A stretch of 21,416 nt of DNA, from the IMG/VR virus record IMGVR_UViG_2579778894_000023, positions 1 through 21,416 of that record; one strand, given 5' to 3'. The position numbers and the translations under genes were made by a program. Within the stretch, counting starts at the first letter, position 1. Each line of letters starts with the position of its first letter. Below, in pieces: positions 7,641-21,003 of this stretch. This DNA comes from a virus. Taxonomy: Duplodnaviria > Heunggongvirae > Uroviricota > Caudoviricetes. The notes beneath the pieces are model-generated. The model saw only the letters and a program-made list of their open reading frames with translations. It was not told the origin of the DNA and did no database searches.

Positions 7641-8048
7641 AATTATCTCCATTTTTACAAATGAATTTTGTCGATGCGGTGCCTGGTGCCTCCAGGTGAC
7701 GTTAACCAGTTAACAATTAACGCCGGATAATCCACCCATAACACTGATGCTTTTAACTGTGCCGCGTGCGCTTAGCCGCATTCACCGCATCACAAAATTC
7801 ACTTTAAAAAGGGGCGGCAGGGCAGCCACGGAGTAGAACTGATGCCGCCAAAGACTACACATAGCAATGTCGTTATTTACAACCGGAGGCGCACTCCCAC
7901 CATTTAAATTTAACAGACAAGACCGACTCTTTATGGATACCGGAAATGCGCCTTCGTGTTGTGCCCGGTTTTATTTCACCACCTCCGGGCTTTGGTGGCC
8001 TCGGCTATACCCCTACAGCAAGAATATTGAATTAATCCAATAAATGGT

Positions 8049-8927: not shown

Positions 8928-9023
8928 TGCATCCTTGTATCACGAATCGTGATTTATATAAAACACAAAACAGCTTGACCATATAACACAAGATGTGTTT
9001 AAAATTGTCATTGGAGGTTTTCA
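8928..9023. promoter_or_regulatory. Divergent PRM/PR promoter-operator region (OR)
   Basis: Two 15-bp palindromes with the same CAC-N5-GTG architecture: atCACgaatcGTGat (8941-8955) and aaCACaagatGTGtt (8985-8999), the latter between TTGACC (8975-8980) and TAAAAT (9000-5) of the rightward promoter. SD GGAGG before ATG 9024. Confidence 0.6.
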
Positions 9024-9266
9024 ATGAACAAAATTTCAACATATCGAAAACAGCTTGGGCTGTCTCAAAGACAACTTGCTGTTCAGTTAGGGTGGATACA
9101 AAGCCGACTGGCAAATTACGAAGCAAATTTTCGTACCCCTGGACTAGAGGAGTGCAGAAAAATTGTTTCTACCCTTAATCGGCTTGGCGCTCATTGTGGA
9201 CTTGACGATGTATTCCCCCCAGACGGTAAGCATAGCGAAAACAGCATAGGAGCGGTTGATTCATGA
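9024..9266 (+). CDS. ydaS: Cro-like HTH regulator (YdaS-like)
   Basis: 80 aa; HTH segment RKQLGLSQRQLAVQLGWIQSRLANYE; first gene of the rightward operon; stop overlaps next start (ATGA). Confidence 0.8.
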   Translation: MNKISTYRKQLGLSQRQLAVQLGWIQSRLANYEANFRTPGLEECRKIVSTLNRLGAHCGLDDVFPPDGKHSENSIGAVDS

Positions 9267-11326: not shown

Positions 11327-12070
11327 ATGGAGACTGTTTTTGACGCACTGAAAGCAATGGGAAAAGCCACGTCGGTAGAGCTGGCTGCGCGACTTGATAT
11401 CAGTCGTGAAGAAGTACTGAACGAGCTGTGGGAACTGAAAAAGGCTGGCTTCGTTGATAAAAGCGTATACACCTGGCGTGTGGCTGATAACAACGTTCAG
11501 CAGGAACAGCCAGCGCCAGAAGAACAGCCGGAAGAAACCACCACGGCGACAGTGGCGAAAATCTCAGAGTACGATTTAACCGCGACGATTGAACAACGCG
11601 GACCACAAACGGCGGATGAACTGGCTACGCTGTTCGGTACAACATCCCGCAAAGTGGCTTCAACGCTGGCAATGGCAATCAGCAAAGGTCGTCTGATTCG
11701 TGTTAATCAGAACGGTAAATTTCGTTACTGCATGCCGGGCGGTAATTTACCAGCAGAGCCGAAAGCGGCATCGGTAGCGGAAACTGATGGTAAAGCCTTT
11801 CCTCAGCCTGCATGTGTTGCGTTACCAGTACAGGAAGCTGCAACACAGGAAGATATTAAAACAGAAACTGTGGCAGACATTGTGCAGCCGCTTGAGAAGC
11901 GAGTGGATAATCTGGTTCTGCCATCGCTGCGACAGGCAAATCGCGAACTGCGTCGGGCGAAAAGTGATATCCGGAAATGGGAGCGAGTCTGTGCCGCGCT
12001 GCGGGAGCTGAATAAATATCGCGATATTGTCGCCCAGCTTTGCCAGGAGGAAACCTGTGAGCGAAATTAA
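11327..12070 (+). CDS. Hypothetical phage protein with two winged-helix-like repeats and C-terminal coiled-coil (YdaW-position)
   Basis: Start at ATG 11327 ([30 protein letters not shown]...) with SD GGAGG; second wHTH-like repeat ([30 protein letters not shown]). The track start at 11276 overlaps ydaV. Confidence 0.7.
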
Positions 12071-12569
12071 CTATCAGGCGCTGCGTGAGGCGGCAGAAGC
12101 AATAAAAATAGCAGCCACACCACAAAAATTTCTGGCATTTCGTATGAAAGCCACACCTCAGGTTGTGCTGGAACTGCTGGATGAACTGGAAATTAAAAGC
12201 AAACGAATTAACGAGTTAATCAAGGGTGGTGAAAACGCCAAATACGTGACTGAAATTTTCCGACTTGAGAAAAAACGCATGACGCTGGCGGCGGAGAATG
12301 AGCTGGCTCGTAAAGCAGTTCAGGCATTCTGCGATGTTGTTGGCGACAACACTGAGGTTATCTGTGAGGAGGTTGGGAGAGATGGCGTTCTGGTTATTTT
12401 GGAGGCCATGAAGGCAACAGGAAATATGCCAGCCACCGACGCTTTCCTGGCTGAAGTACGGGCGCAGGGGGTTGAGATGATGCGCGAACACCCATCAATC
12501 AAACTTTGCTCTTTGACGCACATATGTGACGAGTTAGCCGCTCAGCTTCGCAAAGGAGGCAACCAGTGA
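12057..12569 (+). CDS. ead/Ea22-like family protein (paralog 1)
   Basis: GTG start at 12057 ([17 protein letters not shown]...) with SD AGGAGG 6 nt upstream; N-terminus shared with the paralogs at 12566 and 13210; coiled-coil-like middle region. Confidence 0.6.
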
Positions 12570-12766
12570 GCAAGATTGACTACCAGGAATTGGCTGCTGC
12601 TAACGCTTTTCTGGCGGATGTTCGGGCAGGGGCGTTTAACGACCTTTGCGCGGCGTTTGTCAGGCACGCAAAAATTGCAGGACTGGATGATGGCGACACT
12701 GTGACGCTTAAGGAAGCGACTGATGCGCTGCTGCACTGTGCGGAACAGCTTCGCGCTCCAGAATAA
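12566..12766 (+). CDS. ead/Ea22-like family small protein (paralog 2)
   Basis: GTG start ([20 protein letters not shown]...) with SD AAGGAGG 6 nt upstream; overlaps the previous stop (GTGA). Confidence 0.55.
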   Translation: MSKIDYQELAAANAFLADVRAGAFNDLCAAFVRHAKIAGLDDGDTVTLKEATDALLHCAEQLRAPE

Positions 12767-12832
12767 TTAAATTTTTCACTGTAAATAAAATTTAATCCTT
12801 AACCGGAGGGGTTTCTGCACCCTCAGAACATC

Positions 12833-12864
12833 AGGAGGCCGCCCGAAAGGGCGGTAGTGAAATG
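12833..12864 (+). promoter_or_regulatory. SD-hairpin-AUG translation initiation structure
   Basis: AGGAGG (12833-38) directly followed by the hairpin ccgccc-gaaa-gggcgg (12839-54, GNRA loop), then 7 nt to ATG 12862. Folding would reduce the 23-nt linear SD-AUG distance to ~7 nt. Confidence 0.4.
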
Positions 12865-13044
12865 AGAAAGTTCAAAATAATTATTGAAACGGGAATAGCC
12901 GGTGGAGATTTCGAGGATGAATTCGAAGTGGATGATGATGCGACACCAGATGAAATACAGGATGAAGCTAAAGATATTTTCTTTAACCACTGCAATTACT
13001 CATACCACGAAATAAAAGACGAAGAGGAAGAACAAAATGGCTGA
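12862..13044 (+). CDS. Small acidic hypothetical protein
   Basis: 60 aa, very acidic (DFEDEFEVDDDATPDEIQDE...EEEEQ); start preceded by the SD-hairpin arrangement. Confidence 0.5.
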   Translation: MRKFKIIIETGIAGGDFEDEFEVDDDATPDEIQDEAKDIFFNHCNYSYHEIKDEEEEQNG

Positions 13045-13213
13045 TTTTGGTTCAACTAAATATAACGCCAGTTTTGAAGAATGGCATGAACTGTTAATGG
13101 ATTATGCAGAGTTACGCGGTGGAAGTGGCGCTGATGCTGAAGCATGGCGTGATGATTATGAAGCAGGGAAAACTCCGGTCGAAGCATATTGTGATGAGTG
13201 GGGCGATGAATGA
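13037..13213 (+). CDS. Small hypothetical protein (58 aa)
   Basis: Hand-translated ORF MADFGSTKYNASFEEWHELLMDYAELRGGSGADAEAWRDDYEAGKTPVEAYCDEWGDE; SD GAGGAAG upstream; overlaps the previous stop by 8 nt and the next start (ATGA). Below the ORF-track cutoff. Confidence 0.4.
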   Translation: MADFGSTKYNASFEEWHELLMDYAELRGGSGADAEAWRDDYEAGKTPVEAYCDEWGDE

Positions 13214-13569
13214 GCGAGATTAATTATCAGGAAGGGCATGAAACGGCAGAGCAGGCAAAACCAGTTGCATGGCGATATCGCTACGTGAAAAAAGGCGTTA
13301 CGGACTTTCAGGGGAAGCAGTGGGCTGGTGACTGGAAATATGTCCCGACAAAAGAAGATTGCAACGACAGGCCGAGCTATGAGATTCAGGCCTTATTCAC
13401 TGCCCCGCCAGTTCCGGTGACATCAGAAGGACTGGTTAAAGCCGTGCGCTTTTATGAACAGGTAAAGTGTGAGAATCCGCCAGCTGAAACCGGAGCATGG
13501 AAAGACGCTGTTGACTGGGTACTCAAGGAGGCCTGCCAGGCTGTAAACATTGGCAACAAAGGAGAGTGA
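13210..13569 (+). CDS. ead/Ea22-like family protein (paralog 3)
   Basis: 119 aa; N-terminus MSEINYQEGHETAEQAK shares the SEINYQ motif and its DNA (gagcgagattaattatcag) with the paralog at 12057. Confidence 0.6.
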   Translation: MSEINYQEGHETAEQAKPVAWRYRYVKKGVTDFQGKQWAGDWKYVPTKEDCNDRPSYEIQALFTAPPVPVTSEGLVKAVRFYEQVKCENPPAETGAWKDAVDWVLKEACQAVNIGNKGE

Positions 13570-13570
13570 T

Positions 13571-13789
13571 GTGCCTACATTATTCAGAAAAGAATATCCG
13601 CGAAAAAGTAGAGCGACAGAATTTTTGTTTCTCATTCTGTTTATCGTGTTGATGACACCGATATCCCCGCTAATTTTTGTCTGGGCAATCGGGAAAATAA
13701 TTGAGCCAGTTATTGAATTGTATAACGACGTGGTACGGGCGTCGTTCAATACACTGCACAATAAAATTAATCCATATAAGGAAAACTGA
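13571..13789 (+). CDS. Small membrane protein (one hydrophobic helix)
   Basis: GTG 13571 with SD AAGGAG 6 nt upstream (alternative ATG at 13550); hydrophobic segment FLFLILFIVLMTPISPLIFVWAIG. Confidence 0.45.
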   Translation: MPTLFRKEYPRKSRATEFLFLILFIVLMTPISPLIFVWAIGKIIEPVIELYNDVVRASFNTLHNKINPYKEN

Positions 13790-13790
13790 A

Positions 13791-14156
13791 ATGGCACTGA
13801 CGAAAAAACAACGTGCAGAGCTGCGCATGAAGTTCGGCGGTCGCTGTGCTTATTGCGGCTGCGAACTTGGCGAAAAGTGGCATGCAGACCATGTAAAACC
13901 GGTCATTCGTTTTGCTGGAAATATGCTTCACCAGGAACGTGACGATATATCCAACATGGTTCCGGCATGCCACCCATGCAATCTGCACAAGCATTGCAGC
14001 AGCCTGGAAGATTACCGGCGAATTATCAGTGATGGTCGTCGTGAATTCCTTGCATCCGGGAAAGGCAAAGCGCTGGTTCGCATGGGATTGGTTGAAATGA
14101 AACCTGACCCGGTTGTGTTCTGGTTTGAAAAATATCAAGAAGGGGCTACGGCATGA
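13791..14156 (+). CDS. HNH endonuclease
   Basis: 121 aa from ATG 13791 (MALTKKQRAEL...); classic HNH zinc-finger spacing CAYCGC...HADHVKP...N...ACHPCNLHK; SD AAGGAAAA. Confidence 0.85.
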   Translation: MALTKKQRAELRMKFGGRCAYCGCELGEKWHADHVKPVIRFAGNMLHQERDDISNMVPACHPCNLHKHCSSLEDYRRIISDGRREFLASGKGKALVRMGLVEMKPDPVVFWFEKYQEGATA

Positions 14157-14845
14157 CCACTTTTACCAATAGCAAACAAACAGACGAATACGTTTCAAAT
14201 GCAACGTTGATTCGGCTCATTCTGTGGGCTGACCAGCACAATAGCCATTATGTTGTAGCGGCTCTGCGCGAGCTACAGGAGCGCCGCAAGGCTGATAGTG
14301 TGCCTGTAGAAATCAACGACGACATGGCTTACGCATTTCACCATGCGCTTTCTGACTCATCGCTTGGCTCTGATGAAATCGAAGAAATTAAAACAGGGTT
14401 GCGTGCTGCCTTTGCCAATGTCACCGTCCAGCCGGTGCTGATAGTGCCGGATGAAATGGATTTGCTTACCTGCCATCTCGACGGTGTAACTGAAACATAT
14501 GCTGATGGCTGGAACGCCTGCCGAGTCGCCATGCTTCAGGCCGGAAACTTTCGGGAAAATAAAGATTCGTCAACCAGCAATTTTCGGGAAATCTCGGAAA
14601 CGTCAACCAGCTCTCCGGGAGTTCCGGCTGGCTGGATAAGCTGTAGTGATGCAGTTCCTGCTGAATATTGCGATGTGATTCTGTGCGATGATCTCGGGAA
14701 TGTATTCCCCGGTTCCTGGGACAAGGTTTTTTGTCCCACTCGTGGCGGGAATAAGATGGCTTTTGTGGACAAAGACGGCGTCGAAGTAGAGAGCTCAACT
14801 CACTGGATGCCACTACCGGAACCACCGCAGGAGGTGAATCAATGA
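14153..14845 (+). CDS. DUF551 domain-containing phage protein
   Basis: 230 aa; C-terminal segment WISCSDAVPAEYCDVILCDDLGNVFPGSWDK...THWMPLPEPP is the recalled DUF551 signature; ATGA overlap with the HNH stop; internal tandem repeat NFRENKDSSTS/NFREISETSTS. Confidence 0.75.
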   Translation: MTTFTNSKQTDEYVSNATLIRLILWADQHNSHYVVAALRELQERRKADSVPVEINDDMAYAFHHALSDSSLGSDEIEEIKTGLRAAFANVTVQPVLIVPDEMDLLTCHLDGVTETYADGWNACRVAMLQAGNFRENKDSSTSNFREISETSTSSPGVPAGWISCSDAVPAEYCDVILCDDLGNVFPGSWDKVFCPTRGGNKMAFVDKDGVEVESSTHWMPLPEPPQEVNQ

Positions 14846-14925
14846 CCTGGCCTGAAGCGTTCACAACGGTAGGAATTGCAATGGCGGTGGCGCTGGTGGT
14901 GTATTCGATTTGCCGCTGGGGATAA
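14842..14925 (+). CDS. Candidate 27-aa membrane microprotein
   Basis: MTWPEAFTTVGIAMAVALVVYSICRWG; strong SD AGGAGGTG 6 nt upstream; ATGA overlap with the previous stop; followed 6 nt later by a terminator. Below the ORF-track cutoff. Confidence 0.4.
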   Translation: MTWPEAFTTVGIAMAVALVVYSICRWG

Positions 14926-14930
14926 CAAAC

Positions 14931-14961
14931 AAAAACCCCGGATTGATGGTCCGGGGTTTTT
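14931..14961. terminator. Bidirectional rho-independent terminator ending the moron operon
   Basis: aaaaa-ccccgga-ttgatgg-tccgggg-ttttt: 7-bp GC stem with an A-run on one side and a T-run on the other. Confidence 0.7.
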
Positions 14962-15184
14962 GAAGGAAACAAAACAGAAACAACAATTGCCGTTATCTGT
15001 TGTTACCATGGCAAGTAAACGTATCTCAGGCGAGCGCATTGCGCCGTTCTGACGCAGATAAATTAGCCTGGATAGATGGTGCTGGCAATAAAAAATAGCG
15101 TTTTCTTATCGGTGTCGGTAAGATTGCTGCGGGTGCTTGAGGCTGTCTGCCTCGGGCATGCCACTGTAAGGCAGACAGAGAAAA

Positions 15185-15285
15185 GCCCCAGTTAACATTA
15201 CGCGTCCTGCAAGACGCTTAACATTAATCTGAGGCCATATCTATGCGACACATAGAGATTAGCCTCTTACGGACCGAAAGGTCAA
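15185..15285 (-). ncRNA. Candidate sok-like antisense RNA and its promoter (approximate)
   Basis: Minus strand reads TTGACC (15285-15280), 18-bp spacer, TAATCT (15261-15256); predicted start ~15249 would make an RNA complementary to the mok-like start region. 3' end not defined. Confidence 0.25.
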
Positions 15286-15302
15286 GGAGAAGCAGGCTAT
15301 GA
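15243..15302 (+). CDS. Candidate mok-like leader ORF (19 codons) coupled to hok
   Basis: ATG 15243 lies inside the hairpin ctatg-cgaca-catag; ORF MRHIEISLLRTERSRRSRL ends in TGA overlapping the hok ATG (cTATGAag). Confidence 0.3.
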   Translation: MRHIEISLLRTERSRRSRL

Positions 15303-15454
15303 AGCAGCAAAAGGCGATGTTAATCGCCCTGATCGTCATCTGTTTAACCGTCATGGTGACGGCACTGGTAACGAGGAAAGACCTCTGCGAGGTACGAATC
15401 CGAACCGGCCAGACGGAGTTCGCTGTCTTCACAGCTTACGAATCTGAGGAGTAA
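15299..15454 (+). CDS. hok: Hok/Gef-family type I toxin (small membrane peptide)
   Basis: 51-aa ORF translated by hand: MKQQKAMLIALIVICLTVMVTALVTRKDLCEVRIRTGQTEFAVFTAYESEE, with the Hok signature LTRKxLCE(V/I)R...EVAAF-like...AYES. Below the ORF-track cutoff. Confidence 0.85.
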   Translation: MKQQKAMLIALIVICLTVMVTALVTRKDLCEVRIRTGQTEFAVFTAYESEE

Positions 15455-16013: not shown

Positions 16014-16613
16014 ATGGCGCATATACAACTGGTCAAACAAACCTCTTCAGGATTACTTCTCCCGGCGACGCCGGAGAGTTGCGATTTTTTGCATCAAATA
16101 AAAATAGGTGAGTGGATACACGCAGACTTTAAGCGTGTGCGTAACTACGCATTCCACAAGCGTTTTTTCAAACTCCTGCAACTGGGATTCGATTACTGGA
16201 CTCCGGTCGGTGGGGCGATCACGCCTCGCGAACGAAAACTGGTATCAGGCTTCGTTGATTACCTGTGCGAATCAGTAGGTCGGGAACATACACCAGCTCT
16301 GAGCGAAGCCGCAGAGCAATATCTGAATACAGTTGCAACACGCAGAACCCGGGATACGGCATTGCTAAAGTCGTTTGACGCTTTCCGCGAGTGGGTAACC
16401 ATTCAGGCCGGATTTTACACCGAGCATATTTATCCGGACGGTAGCCACGGGCGTCGGGCGAAATCCATCGCTTTTGCGAATATGGACGAAACCGAGTTTC
16501 AGCAGGTTTATAAAGCCGTACTGAATGTGCTGTGGAACTGGATCCTGTTCCGTAAATTCTCCTCTCCGGAGGAAGTCGAAAATGTGGCCGCGCAGCTGCT
16601 GGAGTTTGCGTAA
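16014..16613 (+). CDS. Nin-region phage protein (possibly DUF1367 family)
   Basis: 199 aa; SD GGAGAA; sits directly upstream of the YbcO-like gene and Q, as in nin regions. Family name is from memory and uncertain. Confidence 0.65.
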   Translation: MAHIQLVKQTSSGLLLPATPESCDFLHQIKIGEWIHADFKRVRNYAFHKRFFKLLQLGFDYWTPVGGAITPRERKLVSGFVDYLCESVGREHTPALSEAAEQYLNTVATRRTRDTALLKSFDAFREWVTIQAGFYTEHIYPDGSHGRRAKSIAFANMDETEFQQVYKAVLNVLWNWILFRKFSSPEEVENVAAQLLEFA

Positions 16614-16903
16614 TGGTGGATTTACGTAAAGCGGCAAAAGGTCAGATGTGTACAGTCAGAATTCCTGGCTACTGCAATCACAATCCCGAAACGTCCGTGC
16701 TGGCGCATTACAGGCTGGCGGGGACGTGTGGAACAGCGACAAAACCACACGATATGCAGGCAGCGATTGCCTGTAGCTCATGCCACGATTTAATCGACGG
16801 GCGGGTAAAAAACAGCGATTACACCAAAGAAGAATTACGCCTGATGCATGCAGAAGGTGTTTTTCGCACACAAGAAATCTGGAGAAAGGAAGGTTATTTA
16901 TGA
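16613..16903 (+). CDS. YbcO-like (DUF1364) Cys-rich putative nuclease
   Basis: 96 aa; DLRKAAKGQMCTVRIPGYCNHNPETSVLAHYRLAGTCG...IACSSCHDLID matches the recalled DLP12 YbcO pattern; ATGA-type overlaps on both sides. Confidence 0.75.
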   Translation: MVDLRKAAKGQMCTVRIPGYCNHNPETSVLAHYRLAGTCGTATKPHDMQAAIACSSCHDLIDGRVKNSDYTKEELRLMHAEGVFRTQEIWRKEGYL

Positions 16904-17454: not shown

Positions 17455-17479
17455 CTCAATCTGTTATCCGGGGCTATAT
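17450..17479 (+). promoter_or_regulatory. Late promoter PR'-like
   Basis: TTGACT (17450-55), 18-bp spacer, TATATT (17474-79), overlapping the end of the Q gene. Confidence 0.55.
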
Positions 17480-17540
17480 TCCTCACGCGCCAGCAAAATC
17501 TGGCGTCGGGATTAGGAACCCCGGATAGAGACCGCGACAG

Positions 17541-17566
17541 ACACACGCCGCGAGCGTGTTTTTTAT
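17541..17566 (+). terminator. tR'-like terminator of the short late leader RNA
   Basis: acacgc-cgcga-gcgtgt followed by tttttt, ~80 nt after the predicted PR' start. Confidence 0.65.
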
Positions 17567-17727
17567 TGTCGTATGCACGCGCACATCTGAATTATGGTGG
17601 GGCGTATGGGGGAGCTGAAAAGCTCGCCGGTTGGTTTCCCGGTAGTTCCTAACCCTGTACGTCTCACCACCCGATGATTAGGAACCTGACGGTGGTGATG
17701 GTTTAGAAACCACCAGAGGGCGTCATT

Positions 17728-20325: not shown

Positions 20326-20385
20326 CATTACAGAAGCTCCTTTGATAAGGGGCTTCGATAATGTTAACAACTTGTGGAAACCATC

Positions 20386-21003
20386 ATGGCATCGAAAAAG
20401 CTAACGGCAGAACAGCAGCGCCTTTTCGATGTGCTGACTCCGCTTCAGAAAAGATTCAGCTTAGCCATTATCAAGGGCAAGAATCAGACAGAGGCTTACC
20501 GCAAAGCCGGAGGGAAAGCGAAGGGCGACAACCTCCGCAAAGCTGCGCACGTAATTGCGACAAATTGCGACGTTCAGGCGTTCATTAAGTCTGTTCAGCG
20601 TGAAATCATCGATGAGGCCATCATGACCCGCGAAGAAGCTCTTAAGCGTTTGTCTAAAATAGGCCGTGCTTCAATCGCCGATATCGCCGAGTTTAGTAAT
20701 AGCATCGTGGGGGAGGATGAAGACGGGAATCCTGTCTATCAAGCCGTCTGGAGCTTCAAGGATTCTTCCCTTCAGGATCCTGACGCGATGAGCGCAGTAT
20801 CAGAACTGACCTCAGGGAAAGATGGTATCAAATTGAAGATGCACGACCCGAAAGCAGCAATAAAGCAGTTGGCTGAATTGCAGGGGTGGGAAGCACCTAA
20901 GAAAACCGAACTGACTGGCGCGGAGGGTGGACCGATCAAGACCGAGACAACCAATCTCACCGCAGATCAGGTCGCAGAGATTTACCGCAAAATGATGGGG
21001 TGA
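20386..21003 (+). CDS. Terminase small subunit
   Basis: [67 protein letters not shown] follows the recalled TerS N-terminal pattern (KKLT.KQ..F...Y......A...AGYS...A...); lies directly upstream of TerL. The track start at 20374 is a GTG. Confidence 0.75.

Follow-up and report, generated by a model that had tools for sequence, protein, structure and literature searches.

A stand-alone HNH endonuclease gene, a DUF551 gene and a 27-amino-acid peptide gene in a lambdoid prophage: a probable rare combination of independent accessory cassettes

Phages are known to encode free-standing HNH homing endonucleases, for example T4 MobE and I-HmuI. There is also precedent for a phage HNH nickase that is expressed early (PMC12817073). 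The exo-xis region of lambda and Shiga toxin (Stx) phages is expressed early, is highly mosaic and is involved in the lysis-lysogeny decision (PMC8614690, PMC10834534, PMC4776307, PMC3824215), and DUF551 is a portable domain that is found joined to unrelated N-termini, in Ea22 variant 2 and in YfdS (PMC10834534, PMC4776307). The DNA analysed here, hereafter called the window, is the IMG/VR virus record IMGVR_UViG_2579778894_000023 over its positions 1-21,416, and the element in question lies at 13791-14925, where a gene for a stand-alone HNH endonuclease is followed by a gene for a DUF551 protein and a gene for a 27-amino-acid hydrophobic peptide (pep27). The window very probably represents a Rac/Qin-like lambdoid prophage of Escherichia coli in which 12027-14925 is the distal part of the early-right operon and the three genes are one rare combination of cassettes. 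That this architecture holds and that the HNH protein is, in addition, a stand-alone accessory nuclease, neither a packaging factor nor a component of a three-gene system, is as a joint claim likely.

A preliminary description of this DNA had reported the HNH, DUF551 and 27-amino-acid open reading frames (ORFs), their ATGA overlaps, a strong Shine-Dalgarno sequence and a terminator, all of which are indeed present, and had proposed that the three genes form a nuclease-based module for exclusion or defence. The co-occurrence of the genes was surveyed in 80 viral contigs and 36 genome loci containing the HNH gene, which gave 70 non-redundant close contexts and 29 distant loci in other genera. 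A DUF551 gene was directly downstream of the HNH gene in 10 of the 70 close contexts and in a single distant locus (Klebsiella, 61 % identity), was the second or third gene after it in 22 close contexts and one distant locus, and was absent within 1.5 kb of it in 38 and 27, respectively. The exact order HNH, DUF551, pep27 was found in 3 close contexts and in none of the distant loci, the commonest gene downstream of HNH being one that codes for an unrelated 114-amino-acid protein. Among 5426 complete E. coli genomes, the full HNH gene was present in 385, pieces of the DUF551 gene in 1489, mostly without HNH, and the pep27 ORF in 1300, whereas only one genome covered at least 80 % of positions 13500-15200. 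The junction between HNH and the next gene as it occurs in the window was found in 16 of the 385 HNH-positive genomes.

Because these frequencies differ and because at least eight partners on either side of HNH share the same junctions, the three genes do not appear to form a unit; on these counts they assort independently and are ordinary mosaic accessory genes, not a three-gene system. The preliminary description had itself named the lack of conserved co-occurrence as an outcome that would speak against its module, and this is what was found. Translational coupling and the shared terminator in the window favour such a module, as do the same gene order in a few other E. coli genomes and the HNH-then-DUF551 pair in the Klebsiella phage, but with the trio so rare, the DUF551 gene a fusion of two genes that elsewhere stand apart and no promoter found for the cassette in the consensus scans, we regard the module as very improbable. 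The profile searches that the preliminary description had proposed for all three proteins confirmed the HNH and DUF551 domains, whereas no PADLOC model matched DUF551 or pep27, and the matches of HNH were to the generic core of PtuB (best E=3.5e-8) and PDC-M01B models only. A literature search for a functional link between DUF551 and HNH found none.

The way in which the genes are joined suggests how such combinations may arise. At least eight different genes upstream of HNH end in AAGGAG..TGA-N-ATG before its start, and at least eight different downstream partners all begin with ATGAC(C)ACT(T/A)TTACC. Thus the genes look coupled because the same short junctions serve many different partners, and all joints of the block, not only that of the HNH-DUF551 pair, show ATGA coupling. 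A conserved junction of about 70 bp on the + strand (14106-14174), which would act as a mosaic recombination joint, spans the ATGA overlap together with the final 50 bp of the HNH gene and 18 bp at the start of the gene that follows. Cassettes would then be exchanged by recombination at short joints, AAGGAG-TGA-N-ATG on the 5' side of HNH and the approximately 70 bp around the ATGA on its 3' side. About 320 genomes without an HNH gene nevertheless retain its final 50 bp. In E. coli 042 (L129:2384-2551) a 55-amino-acid chimeric ORF (MTTITKERIELF...SLEAEPVVFWFEKYQEGATA) ends in the 15 residues of the HNH tail, PVVFWFEKYQEGATA; since this tail is conserved throughout the family, the chimera looks like a leftover from replacement of an HNH cassette, that is, a remnant of HNH loss. 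A by-product of the comparison is a map of the short junction sequences at which cassettes exchange. It also carries a caution, that adjacency, ATGA coupling and a shared terminator are general in lambdoid accessory blocks and are no evidence of a system.

In the upstream part of the block that contains the three genes, an Ead/Ea22-like gene (12027-12569) is followed on the + strand by an ORF of 66 amino acids, a DUF7167 gene (12862-13044), an ORF of 58 amino acids and an ORF of 119 amino acids (13210-13569), identified by Pfam and phrog_660 matches; the ORFs between 12027 and 13569 abut or overlap one another. The gene immediately upstream of HNH (13571-13789, + strand) encodes a small membrane-type protein of the DUF4014 family (PF13198 E=4.6e-23, phrog_1832), its GTG start having been chosen by analogy with RefSeq homologues, while the longest ORF begins at 13550. 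DUF4014 was the commonest upstream neighbour of HNH in the survey, although not an obligatory one. A fixed DUF4014-HNH pair was considered and ruled out, the order being reversed in HK225 and DUF4014 occurring without HNH in 933W and E. coli 042.

A candidate for a PR-like promoter, the sole promoter-like site of the + strand upstream of the block, was found at about 9005-9034 as a consensus match only, and a bidirectional intrinsic terminator hairpin, flanked by an A run and a U run, is predicted at 14930-14962 (-23 kcal/mol, z = -4.8). The consensus scans found no terminator-like site on the + strand between about 9034 and 14930. Of the two features expected of a moron, a promoter and a terminator of its own, the terminator is present, and the same kind of scan found no + strand sigma-70-like promoter between 9034 and 16100. 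Since the scans revealed neither a promoter nor a terminator on the + strand from the PR-like site as far as the 14930 hairpin, the three genes probably form the end of the early-right operon and not an autonomous unit, and since no sigma-70-like promoter was found on this strand up to 16100, expression of the block from a repressed prophage is not indicated by the scans. The block would be a series of small ea/exo-xis-type accessory genes that are translationally coupled and end at a single terminator, each gene being an independent cassette.

Similar blocks occur in Stx phages and related prophages. In ArgO145 the Ead/Ea22, DUF4014, HNH, 114-amino-acid protein and pep27 genes lie in a leftward operon beside a ParDE-type pair. 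In 933W the slot after DUF4014 contains a gene for 95 amino acids and then a DUF551 (EaA-like) gene, and a second Ea22 block ends in an unannotated pep27 homologue just before sokW/hokW. A pep27 homologue also follows the DUF551 gene ORF5 in BP-4795. By gene content, the block of the window is an ea/exo-xis-type accessory block placed behind the replication genes, and this rightward placement is also found in related E. coli prophages. The segments compared for placement were 12027-14925 of the window, L137:5098-8760 (ArgO145) and L139:2410-4876 (933W).

The HNH gene (13791-14156, + strand) encodes 121 amino acids with a predicted beta-beta-alpha-Me fold and a zinc site, as indicated by Pfam, PHROG, alignment and the structural model. 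The ORF matched PF01844 with E=1.5e-6 (28.7 bits, gathering cut-off 21.4) and phrog_2118, annotated as 'HNH endonuclease', with E=1.1e-56. Across 62 homologues with identities down to about 50 %, the two CxxC pairs C19/C22 and C60/C63 and the residues H31, D33, H34, N55 and N64 were invariant, so that both the motif residues and the two zinc pairs expected of the HNH superfamily were found. The AlphaFold model (mean predicted local distance difference test score, pLDDT, 92.4) consists of the HNH core followed by three C-terminal helices. Substitutions among 42 haplotypes showed purifying selection (pS 0.166, pN 0.012, pN/pS 0.073). Because the catalytic and zinc-binding residues are invariant, the pN/pS ratio is low and the confident model matches HNH cores, the gene is judged to be functional and is predicted to encode a catalytically intact zinc-binding nuclease.

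Searches for a more specific identity returned generic cores. Sequence searches of the PDB and Foldseek searches found the HNH of Cas9, Cap5, the Gme nicking enzyme and McrA, and no Foldseek match of the model to the PDB reached E<=0.001, so that mechanistic options are not separable by fold. NCBIfam gave far sub-threshold HNH matches only, to IscB and retron HNH proteins. Secondary PHROG matches were to 'endonuclease VII' families (phrog_1035 E=3.6e-12, phrog_2914 E=2.3e-8). Two assignments were rejected: membership in the NinG/Rap family (PF05766), for which 19.9 bits were obtained against a cut-off of 25.4 and the HNH-like segment alone aligned, and a Septu or retron effector, for which the matches were restricted to the core and neither a PtuA ATPase nor a reverse transcriptase was found nearby. 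Relatives with 30-60 % identity are scattered at non-syntenic sites in unrelated phages, including RB49, where the gene lies beside DNA ligase, and Acinetobacter, Vibrio, Streptococcus and Caulobacter phages, the Caulobacter relative being annotated as a homing endonuclease. A Salmonella phage with a 49 % identical HNH homologue also encodes another, different HNH protein (HNH_5) immediately behind a cytosine DNA methylase gene (L121:15246-16426), and Dam and N6/N4 methylase genes lie in between on this contig.

The preliminary description had doubted a role of the HNH protein in packaging, and the comparisons support this. The small terminase subunit gene TerS (Terminase_2) is located at 20374-21003 on the + strand, and the HNH stop codon lies 6.2 kb upstream of it, close to the 6.5 kb given earlier; no HNH gene was found in the window between the lysis genes and the terminase. 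The accompanying generalisation, that lambdoid phages usually have an HNH gene next to the terminase, holds for HK97-type cos phages (PMC3592412) and does not extend to lambdoid phages in general. A displaced co-factor of the HK97 gp74 type, which stimulates cleavage by the terminase, is suggested by the similar size (121 and 119 amino acids) and by the many phages in which an HNH gene adjoins cos and terminase (PMC3592412). However, BLASTP of the HNH protein against HK97 gp74 gave no alignment at E<=100. Members of the HNH family occur together with Terminase_2 (Klebsiella) and with lambda GpA-type and DUF2280-type (Yersinia) terminases, and also in HK225. In the phages of Klebsiella, Yersinia and Salmonella and in HK225, the gene is placed in the early or nin region, away from the terminase. 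ArgO145, in which HNH lies 28 kb from the terminase, shares 100 % identical TerS, TerL, portal and major capsid proteins with 933W. No member of the HNH family was found in 933W by tblastn of positions 1-40000 and 56332-61409, which gave weak chance-level or NinG-motif matches only, nor is any HNH annotated in these two stretches; the remainder is mostly one giant gene. The HNH protein would therefore be dispensable for a packaging machine that is identical in ArgO145 and 933W. This pair of phages is a clean natural experiment that points to an HNH family unrelated to packaging, and a gp74-type role is barely conceivable.

With packaging set aside, the most probable of the roles weighed for the HNH protein, though still a tentative one, is that of a free-standing endonuclease of the homing or nicking type by which its gene would spread into alleles of the block that lack HNH. 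Read-through from the PR-like promoter would supply the protein early in lytic growth; it would work alone, be dispensable for packaging and be maintained by selection. The non-syntenic relatives at 30-60 % identity and the 15-residue remnant of the HNH tail in HNH-less alleles are compatible with a mobile nuclease. Sporadic presence at a conserved locus together with relatives in unrelated genomes, as would be expected of a homing gene, was likewise found, although the non-nuclease genes of the block exchange alike and the evidence is weak for this reason.

Several observations weigh against homing and against the wider interpretation of the locus. Every gene of the block shows cassette-like exchange, which is not specific for homing, and the HNH-less allele is a replacement, with a gene for 87 amino acids and the gene for 55 amino acids, not a clean empty site. 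No DNA-recognition domain was recognisable in the HNH model beyond the three C-terminal helices. A function of use to the phage is also compatible with the strong purifying selection over a long period (pS 0.17, pN/pS 0.07). The promoter and terminator scans consist of consensus matches alone. The order HNH-then-DUF551 recurs once, with the 61 % identical Klebsiella homologue, and may reflect a loose functional link between the two.

A stronger version of homing would have the HNH protein as an active homing nuclease that cuts HNH-less ea/exo-xis alleles of co-infecting or co-resident lambdoid phages and seeds the shuffling seen here. If so, repair of HNH breaks at the short joints of Shine-Dalgarno sequence, stop and start would drive the exceptional cassette shuffling of the locus. 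This extension is distinctly improbable.

Two other roles were weighed for a nuclease acting alone. As a helper of phage DNA metabolism, the HNH protein could be a nickase or structure-specific nuclease for recombination, for recombination-dependent replication or for early shutdown of host replication, by analogy with T4 endonuclease VII, lambda NinG/Rap and the early HNH nickase Gp16 of staphylococcal phage PhiNM1. The secondary 'endonuclease VII' matches and the sub-threshold NinG match are in line with this, and so are the position in the early operon, the strong purifying selection, the precedent of an early phage HNH nickase (PMC12817073) and the occurrence of the family among nin-region genes of Yersinia, Klebsiella and HK225 phages, where it adjoins NinB/DUF1367, NinX and NinG. 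However, the gene is absent from most sibling prophages and was not found in the searched stretches of 933W, it co-occurs with RusA or NinG without replacing them, the NinG score is below the cut-off and no similarity reaches outside the HNH core, so that we find a helper role rather unlikely. The HNH protein could also be a nuclease of competition or exclusion that acts by itself during lytic growth and breaks down the DNA of the host or of other phages that co-infect or reside in it. It is an intact nuclease under selection, encoded by an accessory gene of variable presence among non-essential early genes, and directly downstream lies a hot spot of genes for defence or addiction (ParDE, one that is KwaB-like, hok). 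No immunity or self-protection partner is consistently linked to it in the surveyed loci, though, no promoter for expression in the lysogen was found in the consensus scans and the PADLOC matches are confined to the generic HNH core; such a role is decidedly unlikely.

The gene following HNH (14153-14845, + strand), whose ATG overlaps the HNH stop codon as ATGA, encodes a 230-amino-acid protein composed of two modules. Residues 160-226 matched PF04448 (DUF551) with E=2.9e-19 and 70.1 bits (cut-off 22), covering profile positions 1-68. In BLASTP comparisons the N-terminal module, residues 1-129, was 93 % identical to a separate protein of 132 amino acids, and the C-terminal module, residues 151-230, was 91 % identical to the end of a separate DUF551 protein of 121 amino acids. 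On these identities the protein is a fusion of two otherwise separate portable modules, and would be of the Ea22/EaA/YfdS kind. The exact 230-amino-acid protein, WP_032276397.1, was found on one contig. Its AlphaFold model was poor (mean pLDDT 45.4), the DUF551 part alone reaching 65-73, and a sequence search of DUF551 against the PDB gave nothing at E<=1. The linker between the modules contains an imperfect two-copy direct repeat of 33 nucleotides (14546-14611; 25/33 identical, by eye), which encodes NFRENKDSSTS and NFREISETSTS; Tandem Repeats Finder did not report this duplication.

The last gene of the block, pep27 (14842-14925, + strand), encodes a predicted single-helix hydrophobic microprotein with the sequence MTWPEAFTTVGIAMAVALVVYSICRWG. 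Its start forms a second ATGA overlap, with GGAGG 7-11 nucleotides upstream, and its grand average of hydropathy (GRAVY) is 1.09, rising to 2.09 for residues 8-24. Homologues were sought by tblastn against phages and by megablast against E. coli genomes. In the 1300 E. coli genomes the conservation of the DNA starts at the ATG and stops at the stop codon, and the flanks differ: the surveyed loci contained at least three unrelated upstream genes, each providing GGAGG, and at least four unrelated downstream sequences. In 90 phage records the homologues have exactly 27 codons, down to 60 % identity, and share the pattern M-x-W-P-E-A-F...V-G...A-V...Y-S-x-x-R-W-G/R; substitutions in their hydrophobic core are conservative. 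The variable sites are mostly third codon positions (pN/pS about 0.25). We conclude from this pattern that pep27 is more than a chance ORF and is a real gene, predicted to be translated as a single-helix membrane microprotein.

Some GenBank genomes contain the exact pep27 under the name 'bacteriophage protein' or 'hypothetical protein', while RefSeq lacks its annotation in the inspected loci, including 933W and BP-4795. The unannotated homologues in these phages are MTWPEAFANVGTVMAVVLVVYSICRWR (933W, L135:2501-2581) and MNWPEAFTAVGVAIAVAFILYSLFRWG (BP-4795, L136:2001-2081). Wherever it occurs, pep27 is the closing gene of a block of the Ea22/DUF551 type, and of the elements at the block end it has the strongest linkage, yet it is not linked to HNH. 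The peptide may represent a functional family of membrane microproteins closing such blocks in roughly one E. coli genome out of four and in Stx phages of the 933W type. The survey thereby yielded, as a further by-product, a conserved 27-amino-acid membrane peptide family missed by RefSeq in well-studied Stx phages.

Directly 3' of the terminator, on the + strand, are a match to sok RNA (15131-15301, Rfam RF01794, 104.7 bits) and a hokD-type toxin gene (15299-15454, PF01848), and the order of pep27 and then hok is also present in 933W. The slot between the block terminator and the hok or nin genes (14963-15130 in the window, also in L001, L002 and L137) is a hot spot for addiction and defence genes, with a ParDE-type pair in E. 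coli 2013C-3252 and ArgO145 and a KwaB-like (Kiwa) gene with a partner in strain CEA224S. In the slot region of the window, sok/hokD alone were found.

The wider gene calls of the window, which include an integrase, RecET, a repressor, replication genes, a Q-like antiterminator, lysis genes and TerS, agree with a prophage context. From the left end, a chromosomal flank with RyeA/RyeB is followed by the integrase, RalA, RecT and RecE, and DicF, and then by a cI-like repressor, a cro-like gene, YdaT, an O-like protein and a DnaC-like loader. The DUF1627, Ead/Ea22-like and DUF7167 genes, several small ORFs and the DUF4014 gene lead to HNH, DUF551, pep27 and the terminator, beyond which lie sok/hokD, rem, DUF1367, YbcO and a DUF1133 Q-like protein. 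The right end contains the isrK/C4 RNAs, an ORF6N protein, holin, lysozyme, spanins and TerS. Rfam matches in the window were obtained at 463-607 (RyeA/RyeB), 2173-2351 (RalA), 7812-7863 (DicF) and 17474-17674 (a pair of isrK and C4-antisense RNA). RyeA/RyeB lies at the chromosomal edge and probably marks the integration site, beside a DUF2511 (YebY-like) gene; RalA is the antitoxin RNA of RalR, and the isrK and C4-antisense pair lies between the Q-like gene and that of the ORF6N protein. A gene for the putative nuclease YbcO is located between DUF1367 and the Q-like gene (16613-16903). Related prophages have RusA at the position of YbcO, so that the window would have a nin-type region with a different candidate junction nuclease.

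When compared with described nucleases, the HNH protein of the window resembles the free-standing homing endonucleases T4 MobE and I-HmuI in being an intact, partnerless gene that occurs sporadically at a conserved slot, with relatives scattered in unrelated phages and remnants left after loss. It differs from them in having no separate DNA-recognition domain and in that the alternative allele is a replacement. With HK97 gp74 it shares the type of a small stand-alone phage HNH protein of about 120 amino acids with a CxxC...CxxC zinc site, but there is no detectable sequence similarity and the gene of the window adjoins neither terminase nor cos. The best matches in sequence and fold were the Gme HNH nicking endonuclease (PDB 4H9D) and the HNH domains of Cas9 and Cap5, which have the beta-beta-alpha-Me core with a zinc site in common with it; these matches are weak and limited to the core (phmmer E=0.044, Foldseek E at least 5e-3, template modelling score about 0.48). 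The HNH effectors of Septu (PtuB) and retrons share the HNH core, which matched the PADLOC PtuB models and TIGR02646, but they differ in their PtuA ATPase or reverse transcriptase partners, of which none lies near the HNH gene, and PtuB is about twice as long; the NCBIfam score was 21.8 against a cut-off of 52.

The DUF551 protein resembles YfdS of CPS-53, P22 EaA and the C-terminal domain of Ea22 variant 2 in its C-terminal 70 residues, which match PF04448, and differs from them in its N-terminal module, which is helical and poorly modelled; no function is transferable from them.

The block as a whole is closest to the exo-xis (ea) region of lambda and Stx phages, which contains Ea22, EaA/DUF551, orf60a/61/63 and further genes. 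A homologous block in ArgO145, 933W and BP-4795 lies on the leftward side, between the recombination genes and xis/int, whereas that of the window is on the rightward side behind the replication genes, and the classical lambda region is without an HNH gene. Both have small overlapping genes, early transcription and strong mosaicism (PMC8614690, PMC10834534), and the Ead/Ea22, DUF7167, DUF4014 and DUF551 families are common to them. The rightward position is the one unusual point; the families and the mosaic behaviour of the region are already known, and in this respect the finding is an ordinary one.

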